59,032 bases of DNA from assembly GCA_016235455.1 (NCBI GenBank), contig JACRKZ010000136.1:1-59032 (forward strand), in the 5' to 3' direction. The notes beneath the pieces are model-generated. The model made no database searches and was not told where the DNA came from. It saw only the letters and a list, made by a program, of their open reading frames with translations. The translations under genes were made by a program, and so were the position numbers. This document shows, one piece after another, positions 27,330 to 33,694 of the stretch; position 1 is the first letter of the stretch; the number at the start of each line of letters is the position of its first letter. This stretch comes from Armatimonadota bacterium (GTDB taxonomy: Bacteria > Armatimonadota > UBA10988).

Positions 27330-29507
27330 TCAGCCGGCCGGCGTGCCCAAGGCCGCCCTGGCCGCCGCCACGTCGCCGGCGCCGTCGTCGCCCTGGCCGT
27401 CGATGTGGCCGATGCCGATCTCGCCGACCAGCGTCATGAACGCTGTGACGCAGCGCGGGTCGAATTGTAAACCGCTGTTCTTGAGGAGTTCTTCAAGCGC
27501 GACCCGCCGCGGCAGCGCCTGCCGGTAAGGTCGACTCGAGGTCATGGCGTCGTAGGTGTCGGCCACGCCGATGATGCGGGCCATGAGCGGGATGTCTTCT
27601 TCGTGCAGGCCATCGGGATAGCCAAACGAGCTGTACCGTTCGTGATGGTGGCGCATGCCGGGCAACAACCCGCGCAGCTGCTTGACCGGGTAGAGGATTT
27701 CGGCGGACTTGACCGGATGCGACTGCATGACGTGGAACTCGTCGTCGGTCAGCTTGCCCTGCTTGAGCAGGATGTCGTCGCGAATGCCGATCTTGCCCAC
27801 ATCGTGCAGCAGGCCGCAGTTGTAGAGCTTGTCGCACTCCTCTTCATCGAGCCCGAGCAGTTCGCCGATCATGCGCGACAGCCGCGCCACGCGCTCGCTG
27901 TGGCCACGCGTGTACGGGTCGCGCGCGTCGATGGCGTTGGCGATGACGCGGATCGAGTGGACGAACTGCTCCTCGAGATCGTCGTACAACTGCGCGTTCT
28001 CGATGGCGGCGGCGGCCTGCGCGGCCAGCGTGACGGCCAACTCGATCTGGTCCTCGCGGAAGTCGCCGCCCTGGTGCTCAGAGAGGTTGAGCACGCCGAT
28101 GACGCGTTCCTTGACGATCAGCGGCAGGCACAGGCTGGCGCTGCGCTGCGCCGACTGCGAGCCCTCGGCCACCTGGCCCTGGTTGAGCACGACCCGCTGG
28201 CCGCTGAGCGCCACGCCGCCGGCGATGCCTTCGCCCAGGCCGATGCGCGTGGACTCCACCACCTCGCGCGGCAGTCCGCGGGCCACGACGATGTGCAGGT
28301 GGCGCTCCGTATCCGGCGGCGTGCCGTCGTCGCGCGGGGTGGGGTCGAACTCGTCGCTCTCCGCCGGCTCGACGATCAGCATCAGCGAGCCCTTGTCGCA
28401 GCTGAGCAGCCGCAGTGCGCTGTCCAGGACCTGCGTGAGCAGTTCGTCGCGCTGTAGGGTGGTGGAAAGCGCCTGCCCGATGACATTGAGCGCGGCCAGC
28501 GCCTCGGCCCGCTGGCTCAGGCCGTCATACAGGCGCGCGTTGTGGATGGCCAGCGCGGCCTGCGTGCCCAGCGCCAGCAGCACCTCCTGGTCATGCGCGG
28601 AGAAGTTGCCGCCGTTGCTGCGCTCGGACACGTTGAGCACGCCGATGATGGTGCCCGACAGCGTCAGGGGGACACACAGCGCCGCGGGCAGCGCGCGGGC
28701 CTCGCTGTGGCTGTCGGCCACCCGCACGCCGGCGGCCAGCCGGCGCGGCTCGCCGCTGCGGGCCACTTCGCCGGCGATGCCTTCGCCCAGGCCGACGCGG
28801 GTGCTGGCGATGACCTCATCGCTCAGCCCATGGGCCACGGCGATGCTCAGCTGCGCGGTGGGCGCGTCGAGCAGCATTACCGAGCCCTTGTGGGCACCGA
28901 GCAGCTCAATGGCGCGGCTGAGCACGCGGCCCAGCGTCTCCTCGAGCGACAGGCTCTCGTTGACCGCCAGCGACACCTCATAGAGCGCGCGCAGCTCGGC
29001 GGCACGATGCTCCTGCTCCTGGTAGGCGCGGGCGTTGGTGATGGCCACGGCGCTCTGGGCGGCCAGCAGTTCGACCAGGCGCACATCGTCGTCGGCGAAG
29101 CTGTCCTGGCCGTCCGTGCGGTCCGACAGGTTGAGCACGCCGATGACCCGGCCATGGGCGGAGAGGGGCACGCAGACGGCGGCGGGCAGATGGACCACGC
29201 GGCCCTCGCGCTCGCGGCTGCCGGCGGCCAGCACGCGGGAACGACCGGACTCGGCGACACCGCCGGCGATGCCTTCGCCCAGGGGCACGCGGGTGTTGGC
29301 CACCACATCGTCCGCCAACCCGTGCGCCGCGGCGATGGTCAGCGCCGCGCCGGCCTCCTCCAGCAGCATAATGCTGCCGTGGCGCGCGGCGAGCAGCTCG
29401 CAGGCGCGGGTCAGAATCACGCCGAGGACCTGGTCGATATCGAGGGTGGAGCTGACCGCGACCGCCACCTCCCAGATCGCTTCGATACGTTGGGCTTCAG
29501 CGGACAT
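27330..29507 (-). CDS. Triple-GAF HD-GYP cyclic-dinucleotide phosphodiesterase
   Basis: Three GAF repeats (LGEGIAG.VA...VIGVLN); DPYTRGHSERV, LHDVGK, HHER...GYP, ADTYDAMTS.RPYR. Confidence 0.92.
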   Translation of the reverse strand: MSAEAQRIEAIWEVAVAVSSTLDIDQVLGVILTRACELLAARHGSIMLLEEAGAALTIAAAHGLADDVVANTRVPLGEGIAGGVAESGRSRVLAAGSREREGRVVHLPAAVCVPLSAHGRVIGVLNLSDRTDGQDSFADDDVRLVELLAAQSAVAITNARAYQEQEHRAAELRALYEVSLAVNESLSLEETLGRVLSRAIELLGAHKGSVMLLDAPTAQLSIAVAHGLSDEVIASTRVGLGEGIAGEVARSGEPRRLAAGVRVADSHSEARALPAALCVPLTLSGTIIGVLNVSERSNGGNFSAHDQEVLLALGTQAALAIHNARLYDGLSQRAEALAALNVIGQALSTTLQRDELLTQVLDSALRLLSCDKGSLMLIVEPAESDEFDPTPRDDGTPPDTERHLHIVVARGLPREVVESTRIGLGEGIAGGVALSGQRVVLNQGQVAEGSQSAQRSASLCLPLIVKERVIGVLNLSEHQGGDFREDQIELAVTLAAQAAAAIENAQLYDDLEEQFVHSIRVIANAIDARDPYTRGHSERVARLSRMIGELLGLDEEECDKLYNCGLLHDVGKIGIRDDILLKQGKLTDDEFHVMQSHPVKSAEILYPVKQLRGLLPGMRHHHERYSSFGYPDGLHEEDIPLMARIIGVADTYDAMTSSRPYRQALPRRVALEELLKNSGLQFDPRCVTAFMTLVGEIGIGHIDGQGDDGAGDVAAARAALGTPAG

Positions 29508-29526
29508 GAGCTTCCTTCGCGCGGCG

Positions 29527-29694
29527 TCAGTCGTCGAGGCGGATGGAGTTCTGGAACTCCGCGACGGTGTCCTTGAGCTTGCGCGACACCTTGGCGACGG
29601 TCTTGGCGACCTCGGGCAGCTTCTCGCCGAACAACAGCACCGCAACGAAGGCGATGAGGATCATCTCTTGCGGACCGACGCCCAGGAACTCCAC
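29527..29694 (-). CDS. tatA: Twin-arginine translocase TatA/TatB family subunit
   Basis: MEFLGVGPQEMILIAFVAVLLFGEKLPEVAK: TM helix, FG hinge and amphipathic helix. Confidence 0.8.
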   Translation of the reverse strand: MEFLGVGPQEMILIAFVAVLLFGEKLPEVAKTVAKVSRKLKDTVAEFQNSIRLDD

Positions 29695-29741
29695 GGCCGA
29701 CTCCCAGCAGGTGTCCGCGCAATGCCGGACTACCATCGATC

Positions 29742-29770
29742 AGTATATTCCTCAGCGGCCCCGCCAGCAA
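29742..29770 (-). promoter_or_regulatory. Putative sigma70-type promoter for tatA and the HD-GYP gene
   Basis: Minus strand reads TTGCTG-17 nt-TATACT. Confidence 0.5.
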
Positions 29771-29836
29771 TCACAAGGTGAAGTGGACGTGGGCCGTGGG
29801 TCGTGGGAAGCAACAGCGCGCCGACGCACGGCCTGG

Positions 29837-32176
29837 TCATCCGCACAGCACATGCAGCACACCCACGGCCCAACTGCCTGGCAGCGGGCGGCCGTCGCGC
29901 GCGTCCAGCGGATGCAGGGCGCTGGCCGGTGGCAGGCCGGCCTGATGCCAGATCTCGCCCAGCTCGGCCGGCGCGGGCTCGTAGCCTGGCGCGACGATGA
30001 TCCGCTGGCCCAGCGTCATGGCTGCCAGGCCGAGCGTGGCCTCGGTGCGGTCGGGCCCCGGCGTGCCAGGCAGCACCACGTCCAGCGAACGGCCATCGGG
30101 CAGGCGCGGGAGATCGGCGGCGACTGCGGCGATATCGCCCAGCAGACCGCGCCGGGTCCGCAGTCGGTCGCCCGCGCGCGGCCGAACGCGCGCCGCCAGC
30201 GTCAGCGCCACCTGCGTCACCGCGCCGCGCGCGTCCACCTGATCGCGCACGGCGGCCACCTGCCAGGCATCACCGGTCTCCGGCGCGTGCTGTGTGGCGT
30301 CGCCGTTGTTGTGGCGCCAGAGGCGGGCCACGAGCGGCTCCCCCGGCGCCACGACCGCGCCCACGCGCACCACGCCGCGCTGATCAAGCCAGCGCGGGTC
30401 ACGGACCGCCGAGCGGGTCAGGACATACTCGCCCGACACCGGGCAGAGCAGCGTCAGCCACTGGGTGTGCGATAGCAGTTCGGCCGCGACCAGACGGTCG
30501 GATACCACCAGGCCGCCTGGCCACTGGTCGCACCAGCCGACCAGCAGGTTGCGGCCCAGCGCCAGCTCGCCGTCAAGCACGCCCGGCCCGTCGGCCAGGG
30601 CATCGCCGCCAGACACCCGCTCGCCGACCTGAACGCGCGGTCGCCAACCGTGCGCGGGCAACGGCAGGTCGGCCTCGCCCAGGCGCAGTGTCGTGTCGGT
30701 CAGCGCCTCCACCAGGCCGTCGCGCGGCGCCGCGAGCCGGGCCGGCGCGGCCACCTCGCGTTCCAGCCCGGTGCCCACCCACGGCACCTGGCCCTGATCG
30801 AGTGGCAGCGTAAGCGCTGAAGCGAAGCCCGCACGCGCAATGGGCGGTGTGTCGGCCACCGGCTCGACATACGCGTCCAGATGGGGCTTCAGGCCCAGGG
30901 CGGCCGCCTCGTGGGCCTCCGCGTGCACCGTCGCCACCGCGTCGGCCAGTGCCAGCGGGTTCTCGCGGCTCACCGCGCGCGCCGTGGGGCCGCGCCGCAG
31001 CCAGTCCAGCCAGACGGCGCTCAAGCCCAGCCGTTCGACCAGGTCTTGCGCGTCGGCGTCGGTATCCAGCCCATCGGTGAGCTGGTCGAGCCGCTCGTTG
31101 TGCGTGCGGCGCGCCTGGTCGAGGAGCTGGCCAGCGGCGCGCTGCAGCCGGAAGCCGTCGCCCACCGCCACCGTGCGGGTCGTGGCCACCACCTCGCGGC
31201 CGTCGACGATGAAGGTGCCGCGCTCCGTGAGCCAGGGCAGCGAGGCCCAGCGCAGCCGGCGTCGCGTGACCGGCTGGCCGCGCTCACCGTGCAGTTCCAC
31301 GCCGACCAGCACCTCGCCCAGCCAGGTGCGCCCGGCGATGGCCGCCACCGACCAGGGCTCGGGCGGCGGCACCACGGCCAGTCCGGCGAAGGCCAGCCGC
31401 CGCCGGCCGGAAGGCCCGTCCAGCGGGAAGCGGCGCGCGATCTCGCTGCTCAGTGCCTCGCCGATCAGCTCCTCGAAAGCGGCCCGCCCGCCGGCCAGCC
31501 AGTCGACGGCGCGTGGCACGCGTCCCAGCGTCAACGGCACGCCCGGTGGTGGCTTCGTCGGCGCGGGCGGCACGGCGCGCGTGGTCAGGCGTTCGGCCAG
31601 ATCGCGCTGGTCGGCCGGCAGCAGCTCGGTCGCGCGGCGCAGCAGCAGCGCGGGGCTCATCTGGTCGTCGGTGGTCAGGTCCAGCAGCAGGTGCTCGTCG
31701 GCCCAGTCGACCCGCGCGGCCACCAGCGGCGTGAAGCGCACGGGCAGGGGCATGTAGCTGCCCTGGCCCAGGCCGATGGCGCCGCGTTGGCCGTGGCCGA
31801 CCTCGACCACCAGCGTCACCTCCAGGGCGCCGCGCGGCCCCACGCGGACGATCTCCAGGTCGGGGTTGGACACATCGAGTCCGGTGGCCAGGGCGATGTC
31901 CGCGCCGGTCACCGTCTGCGGGCCGCCGAAGGCGCACGTCTCCGAGCGCGCCGGCCCGTGGTGGCGCACGCTCAACCGACCTAACCGCCGGGCGATCTGG
32001 GTCAGCGTCAGCGGCAGGTCGTCGAGTCGAGTGTGCGCGGTCGGCGCCGGGCCGAAGCTGACACTGGTGACAGCGGCGCCCTCGACCTCACGCTCGGCGG
32101 CGCGCAGCAGCAGGCAGGCCAGGCGCCGGCCGGCGGCCTGGTCGATCGGCCCGAGGGATAAACGCTCAGTCGCCAC
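29837..32176 (-). CDS. Degenerate RNA polymerase alpha-NTD / mini-beta fusion protein (RpoA-RpoB-like, predicted non-catalytic)
   Basis: aa 1-186 are collinear with the RpoA NTD (GAAVTSV, GPQTVTGADI, NPDLEI, FTP, TDDQMSP). aa ~215-779 are collinear with RpoB blocks (LPWLTERGTFIVDG, ENPLA, VGTGLE, LADGP...GELALGRNLLV, LDQRGVVRVGA.V.PG, LP.LPDG..LDVVL, DARDG.P). Confidence 0.85.
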   Translation of the reverse strand: MATERLSLGPIDQAAGRRLACLLLRAAEREVEGAAVTSVSFGPAPTAHTRLDDLPLTLTQIARRLGRLSVRHHGPARSETCAFGGPQTVTGADIALATGLDVSNPDLEIVRVGPRGALEVTLVVEVGHGQRGAIGLGQGSYMPLPVRFTPLVAARVDWADEHLLLDLTTDDQMSPALLLRRATELLPADQRDLAERLTTRAVPPAPTKPPPGVPLTLGRVPRAVDWLAGGRAAFEELIGEALSSEIARRFPLDGPSGRRRLAFAGLAVVPPPEPWSVAAIAGRTWLGEVLVGVELHGERGQPVTRRRLRWASLPWLTERGTFIVDGREVVATTRTVAVGDGFRLQRAAGQLLDQARRTHNERLDQLTDGLDTDADAQDLVERLGLSAVWLDWLRRGPTARAVSRENPLALADAVATVHAEAHEAAALGLKPHLDAYVEPVADTPPIARAGFASALTLPLDQGQVPWVGTGLEREVAAPARLAAPRDGLVEALTDTTLRLGEADLPLPAHGWRPRVQVGERVSGGDALADGPGVLDGELALGRNLLVGWCDQWPGGLVVSDRLVAAELLSHTQWLTLLCPVSGEYVLTRSAVRDPRWLDQRGVVRVGAVVAPGEPLVARLWRHNNGDATQHAPETGDAWQVAAVRDQVDARGAVTQVALTLAARVRPRAGDRLRTRRGLLGDIAAVAADLPRLPDGRSLDVVLPGTPGPDRTEATLGLAAMTLGQRIIVAPGYEPAPAELGEIWHQAGLPPASALHPLDARDGRPLPGSWAVGVLHVLCG

Positions 32177-32233
32177 GGAAGGTACTTCCTCGCAGGTTCA
32201 AGAACTGCGCACCCAACTGCGCGGAGCATTCGC

Positions 32234-33694
32234 ATGACCATTCGCCACTCCTGCCGCTCGTGGCCGACGCTCTGCCTGCTGGCCGCGGCGCTCTCGGCCG
32301 GCGCCGCCGGCGCGGTCGACAAGCCCTGGCAACTGGTCGGCCTGCCAGCGGGCGGCTGGGCCGACCTGGGTGTCGTCGTGGGCGGTCTGACCATCGTCCG
32401 CGCGCAGGTCAGCCCCGAGCCGGCCGGCGCCAGCCTGGTGGTCGAGGTGCGGGCGCGCCACGCCGAGCCCACGCGGTTTGCCGTGTCGGCCTTCGATGAG
32501 CGCCGTCAGCCGCTGGGCGCCGGCTGCGACACGGTCGCCGTGCCGGGCGCCGGGGCGCCCTTGGCCAGCCGCGAGACGCTGACCAGCCTGCGCCTGCCGC
32601 TGGGTGCGGTCGATCCCGCCGCGGTGCGTTACCTGGCCGCCGGACCGGTGGCTGTGGCCGCGCCGCGCGACACCAGCCTGTGCGCCGCGGCGCGCGGTGG
32701 CCGCGTCAGCGCAACGTCGTCGAGCTACGGATCGAGCTTCGACGAGCAGCGCATCCTCGACGGTCTGCCCAACACCTTCTACGCCTCGAAGACCGGCCTA
32801 ATCACCAACCAGTGGCTGATGATCGACCTGCCCGGCGACGAGCCACTGGAGATAGCTGAGATTGGCATCGACGGGCATGGCGAGCCCAACGACCCCAAGT
32901 CGGCGCTGCGCCACTTCGCCGTGCTGGCCTCGGAAGGCGGCACCGCCGAGGCCGACTTCCACGAGGTGCTGCGCGACGAATGTGCGTTCGACGCCGGCCT
33001 CCAGCGCTGGCCGATCAAGCCTGTCCAGGCCCGCTGGATCAAGCTGCTCTGCCTGGACAACTGGGGCAGCACGCAGTGGGTGGAACTGGCCTCGTTCGAG
33101 TGCTACGCGCCGTCTGGGCCGCCGACCCCGCGCCCCGAACTGGTGCAGTCGCTGGCCGACTTCCCAGCGCCGGCGGCGCCGCCGTTGGCCGACAGCGATG
33201 GGCCTGTGTTCCTGCTCCGGTACATCGTGCCGACGGACCCAGCGCCGGCCCAGCCCGCCTGGCGCGTGGCGCTGGACGGCTGCCGCGAGGGTAGCGCGCG
33301 GGTCGTACACTGCGACAGCGACGGCGCCACCTTCGCCGCGCTCCGACTCGACTTCGCCTTTGGCAACCTGCTGGGCGGAGCGCCGCAGAGCTGCGCCGCG
33401 CTGTTCGACACGGCCTTCACCGGTGCGGCGCGGCGGGTGCAGGTCACCTACCGCACCGACCGGCCCGGCAACAGCCTGCGACTGGCCTGTGCCGGGCCGG
33501 ATGGGTCGCTGGTCTGGCGCGATGTGGCCCGACCGACCGATCGGGCCTGGCACGTGGGCAGCGTTGCCGTGGACGACACGCTGGGCCTGGGCTCACGCTT
33601 CGCGCGACTGGCGGTGGTGCCGCGCGGCCGCGACAACCTTACCGGCAGCCTGTGGGTGGCGCAGGCGCTGGCGCTCTACGCGCCGGCGCCGTAG
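32234..33694 (+). CDS. Secreted protein with discoidin (F5/8 type C)-like domain
   Basis: Signal peptide; ILDG...., QWLMIDL, ARWIKL..LDNWG..WVELASFE. Confidence 0.72.
   Translation: MTIRHSCRSWPTLCLLAAALSAGAAGAVDKPWQLVGLPAGGWADLGVVVGGLTIVRAQVSPEPAGASLVVEVRARHAEPTRFAVSAFDERRQPLGAGCDTVAVPGAGAPLASRETLTSLRLPLGAVDPAAVRYLAAGPVAVAAPRDTSLCAAARGGRVSATSSSYGSSFDEQRILDGLPNTFYASKTGLITNQWLMIDLPGDEPLEIAEIGIDGHGEPNDPKSALRHFAVLASEGGTAEADFHEVLRDECAFDAGLQRWPIKPVQARWIKLLCLDNWGSTQWVELASFECYAPSGPPTPRPELVQSLADFPAPAAPPLADSDGPVFLLRYIVPTDPAPAQPAWRVALDGCREGSARVVHCDSDGATFAALRLDFAFGNLLGGAPQSCAALFDTAFTGAARRVQVTYRTDRPGNSLRLACAGPDGSLVWRDVARPTDRAWHVGSVAVDDTLGLGSRFARLAVVPRGRDNLTGSLWVAQALALYAPAP

Follow-up and report, generated by a model that had tools for sequence, protein, structure and literature searches.

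By the textbook account, bacteria have one multisubunit RNA polymerase made of separate alpha, beta, and beta′ chains. What, then, is a gene that encodes parts of both alpha and beta in a single chain and lacks the catalytic motifs? Such a gene lies on the reverse strand of the 59,032-nucleotide (nt) contig JACRKZ010000136.1 (GenBank assembly GCA_016235455.1) of a bacterium of the phylum Armatimonadota; this whole stretch of DNA is called the window below, and the product of the gene is called the window protein. The reading that we favor, with a probability of about 0.55, is that this is a real, selected gene for a noncatalytic chain made of an alpha N-terminal domain (NTD) and a reduced beta, that it derives, in degenerate form, from a lineage of fused alpha-beta(-beta′) proteins, and that it probably acts as a scaffold or decoy.

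One chain with parts homologous to alpha and beta

The window protein is an alpha NTD joined to a diverged beta, and by sequence comparison the homology of both parts is far above chance. The NCBIfam rpoB models matched the protein at E 3.4e-23 (81.4 bits against a cut-off of 896 and 74.7 against 801 for TIGR02013 and PRK00405, respectively), and the rpoA model TIGR02027 matched residues 5 to 186 at E 4.7e-8 (model positions 3 to 200; 32.6 bits against a cut-off of 227.8). In the PDB, a sequence search matched RpoB chains (E 6.8e-20) as well as RpoA chains (1.4e-8), and the Pfam matches, to RNA_pol_Rpb2_6 at residues 595 to 772 and to RNA_pol_A_bac at residues 83 to 131, were all below threshold. 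By score and by motifs, the protein is a member of neither RpoB nor RpoA. It has the dimerization and insert domains of the RpoA N-terminal region, and its predicted structure has the beta-subunit fold: all 50 of the 50 Foldseek matches listed were RpoB-type chains, both cellular and plastid, with E values of 1.4e-30 to 6.6e-27 and template modeling (TM) scores, normalized to the query, of 0.51 to 0.57. The best scores in a protein atlas lookup, 0.77 to 0.79, were all to RpoB-like proteins and serve as leads only.

The AlphaFold2 model, built on an alignment of 40 rows, is a confident one, with a mean predicted local distance difference test (pLDDT) score of 87.5 and a predicted TM (pTM) score of 0.86, and it is weak only at residues 335 to 338, the scar of the lobe, and 431 to 451, the scar of regions D and E. 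The whole-chain pTM suggests a fixed arrangement of the alpha and beta parts. The parts of the gene are as follows.

29837-32176, reverse strand: whole open reading frame (ORF), 779 residues plus stop, with a GTG start at 32176; the only ORF assigned to this region.
32185-32190, reverse strand: AGGAAG, 8 nt upstream of the GTG, called Shine-Dalgarno-like only for its resemblance to the consensus.
31562-32176, reverse strand: alpha-NTD-like part, residues 1 to 205, with dimerization and insert domains (NCBIfam rpoA, PDB RpoA chains; pLDDT 89 to 98).
31505-31561, reverse strand: proline-rich linker between alpha and beta, residues 206 to 224 (alignment; pLDDT 71 to 88).
31175-31504, reverse strand: beta N-terminal (protrusion) part, residues 225 to 334, aligned to Escherichia coli beta ~30 to 150 (PDB match stretch 232 to 353).
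31151-31174, reverse strand: TVAVGDGF, residues 335 to 342, in the place of the lobe (E. coli beta ~154 to 445; alignment).
30923-31150, reverse strand: RRVR...NPL equivalent (region C and the start of region D), residues 343 to 418 (alignment; pLDDT 61 to 82).
30797-30922, reverse strand: low-confidence stretch standing for fork loop 2, ETPEG, external domain 1, and region E, residues 419 to 460 (pLDDT 33 to 69; below 50 at 431 to 451).
30173-30796, reverse strand: equivalent of regions F and G (first half of the barrel and the flap), residues 461 to 668; by invariant columns the best conserved part of the clade (pLDDT 84 to 96).
30512-30526, reverse strand: QWPGG, residues 551 to 555, at the GYNFED site (alignment).
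30299-30319, reverse strand: WRHNNGD, residues 620 to 626, at the site of the flap-tip helix (alignment).
30137-30172, reverse strand: GDRLRTRRGLLG, residues 669 to 680, at the GDKxxGRHGNKG site (translation and alignment).
29840-29866, reverse strand: C-terminal VGVLHVLCG, residues 771 to 779, at the site of RpoB VGYMYMLKL (alignment).

The GTG start agrees with the ortholog P0162, whose protein begins MATER. A weak hairpin follows the stop codon.

The initial annotation had taken positions 29837 to 31534 to be a beta-like part that had lost its catalytic, sigma-binding, and clamp elements. This span corresponds to residues ~215 to 779, and alignment of the window protein with the RpoB of its own genome (P0160, contig C159) and with E. 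coli RpoB bore out the changes that had been described. The RpoB motif GDKMAGRHGNKG reads GDRLRTRRGLLG. The first of its two nucleoside triphosphate-contacting lysines has been replaced by arginine rather than simply lost, and the histidine, asparagine, and second lysine have become arginine, leucine, and leucine. The motif W(E/N)GYN(Y/F)ED(A/S) has given way to QWPGG, the flap tip has collapsed to WRHNNGD, and TVAVGDGF replaces the lobe between "...SQL.RSPG" and "RRVR." After NPLA (residues 403 to 406), about 40 residues with pLDDT values of 33 to 57 stand in place of the fork loop, ETPEGPNIGL, external domain 1, and HDDANRALMGANMQRQAVP. Its last residues are VGVLHVLCG, at the equivalent of VGYMY.LKL, and the alpha C-terminal domain (CTD) is missing, the alpha part ending near residue 205. 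To these may be added the NPLGVPSRMN site, which reads LPGTPGPDRT with a gap, and region E HDDANRALMGANMQRQ, which is absent from the alignment. The deletions fall at domain boundaries and do not cut through the structure at random. Each change is thus seen against the genome's own RpoB, but the window protein is not a trimmed copy of that RpoB (see below).

Shared breakpoints and selection in present-day strains

The gene is found in a few related groundwater bacteria, and the clade of the window protein contains five intact full-length frames. Relatives of the window protein with intact frames are P0162 (780 amino acids [aa], 73% identity), P0003 (798 aa, 47 to 48% identity, ending ...VLYVLKVRE), P0009 of genome G005 (734 aa, 31 to 33% identity, ending ...YLLRLRGA), and P0023 (734 aa, 29% identity). 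All four share the breakpoints of the window protein, that is, those of the lobe, of regions D and E, of the flap tip, and of the C terminus. Genome G001 carries an N-terminal fragment of a window-type gene at a contig end. In all forms of the clade, including a short form described below, the alpha part is the best kept piece.

Strain variation was assessed by comparing the contigs of four DNA runs over positions 27330 to 33694. Among the single-nucleotide polymorphisms (SNPs) listed, all six inside the fusion gene are synonymous, an outcome with a neutral probability of 6e-4 if rates are equal and 2e-3 if only transitions are considered. A single indel is listed in the gene, an insertion of 3 nt that keeps the frame. 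For the neighboring genes in the same SNP table, the synonymous fraction among those listed was 14/15 for the GAF-HD gene, 5/6 for tatA, and 1/5 for the F5/8C protein gene. The third-codon-position GC content in frame is 0.894, similar to that of neighboring genes. Purifying selection acts on the fusion gene in present-day strains. The gene is not a pseudogene, because the model is confident, the breakpoints are shared at 31 to 73% identity, the six listed SNPs are synonymous, and the indel keeps the frame.

A family of single-chain alpha-beta(-beta′) proteins

An exhaustive representative search gave 717 matches at E up to 0.001, and the best 150 of these were listed. Among the best 150, the best nonorthologous matches are very long proteins. 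P0012 (1,948 aa), P0013 (1,966 aa), P0014 (2,309 aa), P0025, and P0026 carry the Pfam domains of alpha NTD, beta, and beta′ in a single chain; P0033 (1,005 aa) and P0100 (823 aa) carry those of alpha and beta; and P0024, P0044, and P0020 carry those of beta and beta′ without a Pfam alpha match. When the alpha NTD of the window genome was compared with 163 collected proteins, 12 matches were longer than 700 aa, and P0042 also matched alpha. Of the single polypeptides of ~1,900 to 2,300 aa, most are without lobe and flap tip.

These fusions keep what the window protein has lost. Their sequences show GDK..RHG.KG in P0012, P0013, and P0033 and NAD.DGD in P0012 and P0013, and the residues of both catalytic motifs are invariant in an eight-row alignment (A3). 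The motif-keeping fusions also retain regions D and E, NFED, and region I, and they are apparently active enzymes, as judged from these motifs. At the same time, the lobe is lost at the exact breakpoint of the window protein in P0012, P0013, P0033, and P0100 (P0014 keeps it), the flap-tip helix is missing from the same alignment region in P0012, P0013, and P0033, and the alpha CTD is missing from all of them. The window protein thus has the order of the fused family, with the alpha NTD before beta in a single chain and no alpha CTD, as well as its lobe deletion at the SQL/RRVR boundary and its short flap tip, but not its intact catalytic motifs.

The placement of the window clade was assessed with phylogenetic trees. 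A 49-row tree contained 5 window-clade proteins, 5 alpha-beta fusions, 9 alpha-beta-beta′ fusions, 29 canonical RpoBs from the match lists, and a compact enzyme of the window genome (P0159; see below). A second tree and the approximately unbiased (AU) tests used 23 of the 49 rows and the 560 columns at which the window protein has a residue; set aside from this smaller sample were P0159, the fusions P0024, P0044, P0020, P0026, P0100, and P0136, and 19 canonical RpoBs. The window clade formed one group in both trees (support of 96 in the 49-row tree and 95 in the 23-row tree), fell outside the group of all sampled canonical RpoBs (98 and 94), and adjoined P0012. Grouping of the window clade with the RpoBs of its own lineage was rejected by the AU test (P = 0.0018). 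An origin as a recent copy of the genome's own rpoB is rejected by this result and by the tree position. A shared origin with the fused family would explain these comparisons most economically but is not proven.

Fused forms were also sought in viral contigs. The matches of a scan with alignment A3 had 25 to 31% identity, as canonical rpoBC genes do, and none of the 80 loci kept was fused. A 40% match in that scan, L141, has separate full-length beta and beta′ genes and is not a fusion; on this IMG/VR contig (63,973 bp), rpoB and rpoC stand beside dnaG and an HD phosphohydrolase gene, and the DNA is probably cellular. A search of the phylum with P0033 was dominated by canonical rpoB, with 554 matches beyond those listed. 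At G038:C1:15829-16455 and G062:C10:38683-39306, in two other genomes of the phylum, only the C-terminal fifth of the RpoB-type query was matched, in frames of 1,024 and 1,027 aa, respectively; these are possible additional paralogs of reduced, polymerase-like type. Among the proteins that match the alpha part of the window protein most closely are two from metagenomes, P0140 (526 aa), in which two tandem alpha N-terminal domains and one alpha CTD make a covalent alpha dimer, and P0105 (290 aa), which looks like a partial alpha tandem.

A proposed route to a noncatalytic chain

The initial annotation had read the in-frame deletions at domain boundaries as selected streamlining toward a nontranscribing scaffold. 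Selection on the gene, the position of the deletions, and their conservation in relatives agree with that proposal. The losses of the lobe, the flap tip, and the alpha CTD do not support it: they are shared with fusions that keep the catalytic motifs and so are not evidence of streamlining toward a scaffold. For the same reason, the window protein would owe its fusion, its missing lobe and alpha CTD, and its short flap tip to inheritance from a catalytically competent fused ancestor. Later losses, specific to the window clade, would have removed the fork and regions D and E, the acidic pair of NFED, NPLGVPSRMN, and, from GDK..RHGNKG, the histidine and the lysines; the C-terminal part that clamps onto beta′ would have gone in its entirety. 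From these sequence changes we infer that the window protein can neither make RNA nor form a normal core with beta′, and its function is probably other than making RNA.

The window protein would act through the surfaces left to it, namely the dimerization face of alpha and, on the beta side, the flap and barrel body on which alpha docks. RNA polymerase assembles in the order alpha2, alpha2-beta, and alpha2-beta-beta′, and the retained part would represent the half that is assembled first, alpha on beta. The putative target would be another protein, and free alpha or another transcription component may be guessed at. A complex prediction for the alpha part of the window protein with the host alpha NTD scored 0.00, below the mark.

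Weighing the alternatives

Several observations count against the reading of a selected, noncatalytic scaffold or decoy descended from the fused family. That role is a best guess only, and its partner is hypothetical. No RNA run is listed as containing the stretch. The comparison of gene neighbors at the window, G005, and P0003 loci found no neighbors common to the three, and a window-type gene was not found in three genomes of the same family, G002 (93% complete), G003 (72%), and G004 (95%). The SNP counts are of the SNPs listed, and 40 further table rows lie outside that listing. Between the window genome (G000) and G005, the fusion protein is only 31 to 33% identical, compared to 78% for RpoB and 74% for RpoA. 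The composition has drifted as well: the first-codon-position GC content is 0.82, and the protein has 2 lysines in 779 residues (0.3%), 10% arginine, and 14% alanine, compared to ~4% lysine in the RpoA and RpoB of the same genome. With so extreme a drift and so fast a divergence, long-term constraint on the protein is weak, and decay therefore accounts for part of what is seen. The G005 gene has lost more of its C-terminal third than the window gene has, and a short form (P0011, P0164, and P0165; 331 to 334 aa) consists of the alpha part, at 51% identity, and only ~85 residues of beta, the flap (residues 578 to 662). Both look like continuing erosion. The short-form genes sit on contigs of 12 to 17 kb, and one cluster member, P0163, is named Armatimonadetes by its source; a model of P0011 is good over the alpha part and poor over what is left of beta, so that no minimal alpha-flap module is shown. 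As for descent, the trees come from quick searches, their branches are long and the composition is skewed, and the groups for the AU tests were chosen once a first tree had been inspected. The alternative in which the window clade and all canonical RpoBs stand together against the fusions was not rejected (P = 0.20), and the alpha part matches canonical alphas at E 1e-17 to 1e-19 but the alphas of fusions only at 1e-9 to 1e-10.

These last two figures are what would be expected if alpha and beta had been fused independently and the lobe and flap tip lost convergently, with no relation to the intact fusions; being a discrete inserted domain, the lobe could be lost repeatedly. Against this, which we hold to be unlikely, are the same order of parts, a lobe breakpoint at the same alignment columns, the maximum-likelihood trees, in which the clade falls on the side of the fusions, beside P0012, and the rejection of a recent own-lineage copy. 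The erosion signs would fit a relic of a once active fused polymerase that has no present function and whose frame stays open since stop codons are rare at 75% GC and loss is slow. Such a relic would explain why all catalytic motifs are gone, the divergence and drift, the extra deletions in G005 and in the short forms, and the patchy presence within the family, and long spurious ORFs that overlap the gene on both strands show that frames easily stay open here. It would not account for the synonymous SNPs and in-frame indel among those listed, for five intact full-length frames at 31 to 73% identity with shared breakpoints, for a confident fold that includes the placement of the two parts, or for a third-codon-position GC content like that of real genes, and we rate it slightly below an independent fusion.

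A structural role in an alternative polymerase is suggested by another reduced polymerase-derived gene of the same genome. On contig C40 (L031:8659-11625, forward strand), P0159 is a compact beta-beta′ fusion of 988 aa, with GDKLSNRHGQKG and NADFDGDQ intact and no alpha, and the window protein, which retains the alpha platform, might be thought to complement it or some undetected partner that supplies catalysis. P0159 resembles the window protein in being reduced and in occurring in the same genome and bacterial family, and differs in having the catalytic motifs and a beta′ part, in lacking alpha, and in not co-occurring with it. Homologs of the compact gene are present in G002 and G003 and not in G005, G004, or G001; the compact gene thus occurs without the window gene in G002 and G003, and the converse holds in G005, so the two do not travel together. 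In addition, a beta-type barrel is already part of the compact enzyme, no region for docking beta′ remains in the window protein, and the two genes are on separate contigs. The only other beta- or beta′-like loci in the genome are the canonical rpoBC genes, and no further partner-like genes were found there. Taken together, this makes a shared enzyme very improbable. A more tenable, still tentative, possibility is that the window protein is the dead end-member of a lineage of natural single-chain, multisubunit-type RNA polymerases, in which alpha NTD, beta, and beta′ form one polypeptide of ~1,950 to 2,300 aa without lobe, flap tip, or alpha CTD, and that it plugs into the polymerase assembly of its host as a regulator or decoy. 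Catalysis would have been lost and the alpha-beta "assembly intermediate" half kept as a pseudo-enzyme that might, for example, pair with free alpha.

Distribution and genomic context

The window clade was found only in one family (f1), in 3 of its 6 genomes and thus in 3 of the 401 phylum genomes that were searched. A search with the alpha part (E up to 1e-9) matched four of the 401 (G000, G005, G001, and G338), and the G338 match, a frame of 397 aa with 31% identity, may by its length and identity simply be that genome's own alpha. A scan of the genome collection for orthologs with alignment A1 used the universal motif [DH]G[EA][LV]ALGR[NR]L. Its 80 loci were distant beta homologs with 26 to 35% identity, mostly to query residues 457 to 777, and none matched as an ortholog. 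A metagenome scan with a clade-specific piece (A4) matched only the P0003 contig.

The gene has ordinary chromosomal neighbors. Downstream on the same strand, tatA (69 aa) begins 100 bp away and is followed by the gene of a triple-GAF protein whose HD domain is of the HD-GYP type; the two genes occupy positions 27330 to 29736, reverse strand. The other neighbors encode an M48-TPR peptidase, a secreted F5/8C protein whose gene is transcribed divergently, SurA-like isomerases, an aldo-keto reductase, a GDP-mannose dehydratase, and an adenylosuccinate lyase.

Comparison with known systems

The window protein shares the fold of RpoB (P0160; E. coli b3987), and its regions A, C, F, G, and H and the beginning of region I follow one another as they do there. 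It differs in being fused to alpha and in having no lobe, flap tip, external domain 1, fork, regions D and E, or C-terminal clamp; the acidic and basic residues of catalysis are gone as well. Both sub-domains of the NTD of RpoA (P0161) are present, and the arginine at the E. coli R45 position, a residue with a role in beta binding, is kept across the window clade. Unlike RpoA, the protein has no CTD and no free C terminus, and it is ~21% identical to the alpha of its own genome (alignment A2). Its nearest tree neighbors, the metagenomic fusions P0012, P0013, P0014, P0025, P0026, P0033, and P0100, have alpha NTD before beta and no alpha CTD as it does, but they keep regions D and E, NFED, region I, and, in those whose sequences were read, the catalytic motifs, and in the long forms a full beta′, all of which the window clade has lost.

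Natural beta-beta′ fusions, as in Helicobacter and Wolbachia, are active and are the only polymerase of the cell. NCBIfam models for "subunit beta/beta′" (PRK14844 and PRK09603) were among the matches to the window protein, and like those fusions it has large RNA polymerase subunits in one chain; it differs in joining alpha to beta, in being an extra copy, and in being catalytically dead. Polymerase-derived pseudo-enzymes are known among DNA polymerases (ImuB). A polymerase homolog that lost catalysis and was kept as a structural component is an analogy for the proposed mode of action, not a homolog; its fold is unrelated, and its partners are known. Extra copies of subunit genes have also been described: actinomycetes have second rpoB copies (Nonomuraea, PMC5431353), and Francisella has two alpha subunits (PMC3294249). 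Those paralogs are reported to be full length and to assemble into active polymerase. Neither alpha-beta(-beta′) fusions nor dead RpoB paralogs were found described in the literature searched, which left subscription-only papers outside; in a 2026 review of alpha-like subunits (PMC13374769), the words "fused" and "fusion" occur 0 times.

The window protein is an RNA polymerase subunit paralog or fusion. The family of single-chain polymerases is apparently undescribed. The narrow distribution and the signs of erosion lower the weight of the finding; the selection signal and the link to single-chain polymerases raise it. It means that a natural alpha-beta fusion is possible and that it belongs with a set of fused enzymes known only from metagenomes. 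It also means that a catalytically dead half of a fused polymerase can persist under selection. If a partner were found, the window protein would be a polymerase-derived pseudo-enzyme, of which the literature searched gave no bacterial RNA polymerase case. For minimal RNA polymerases in a single chain, its intact fused relatives would serve as natural models.

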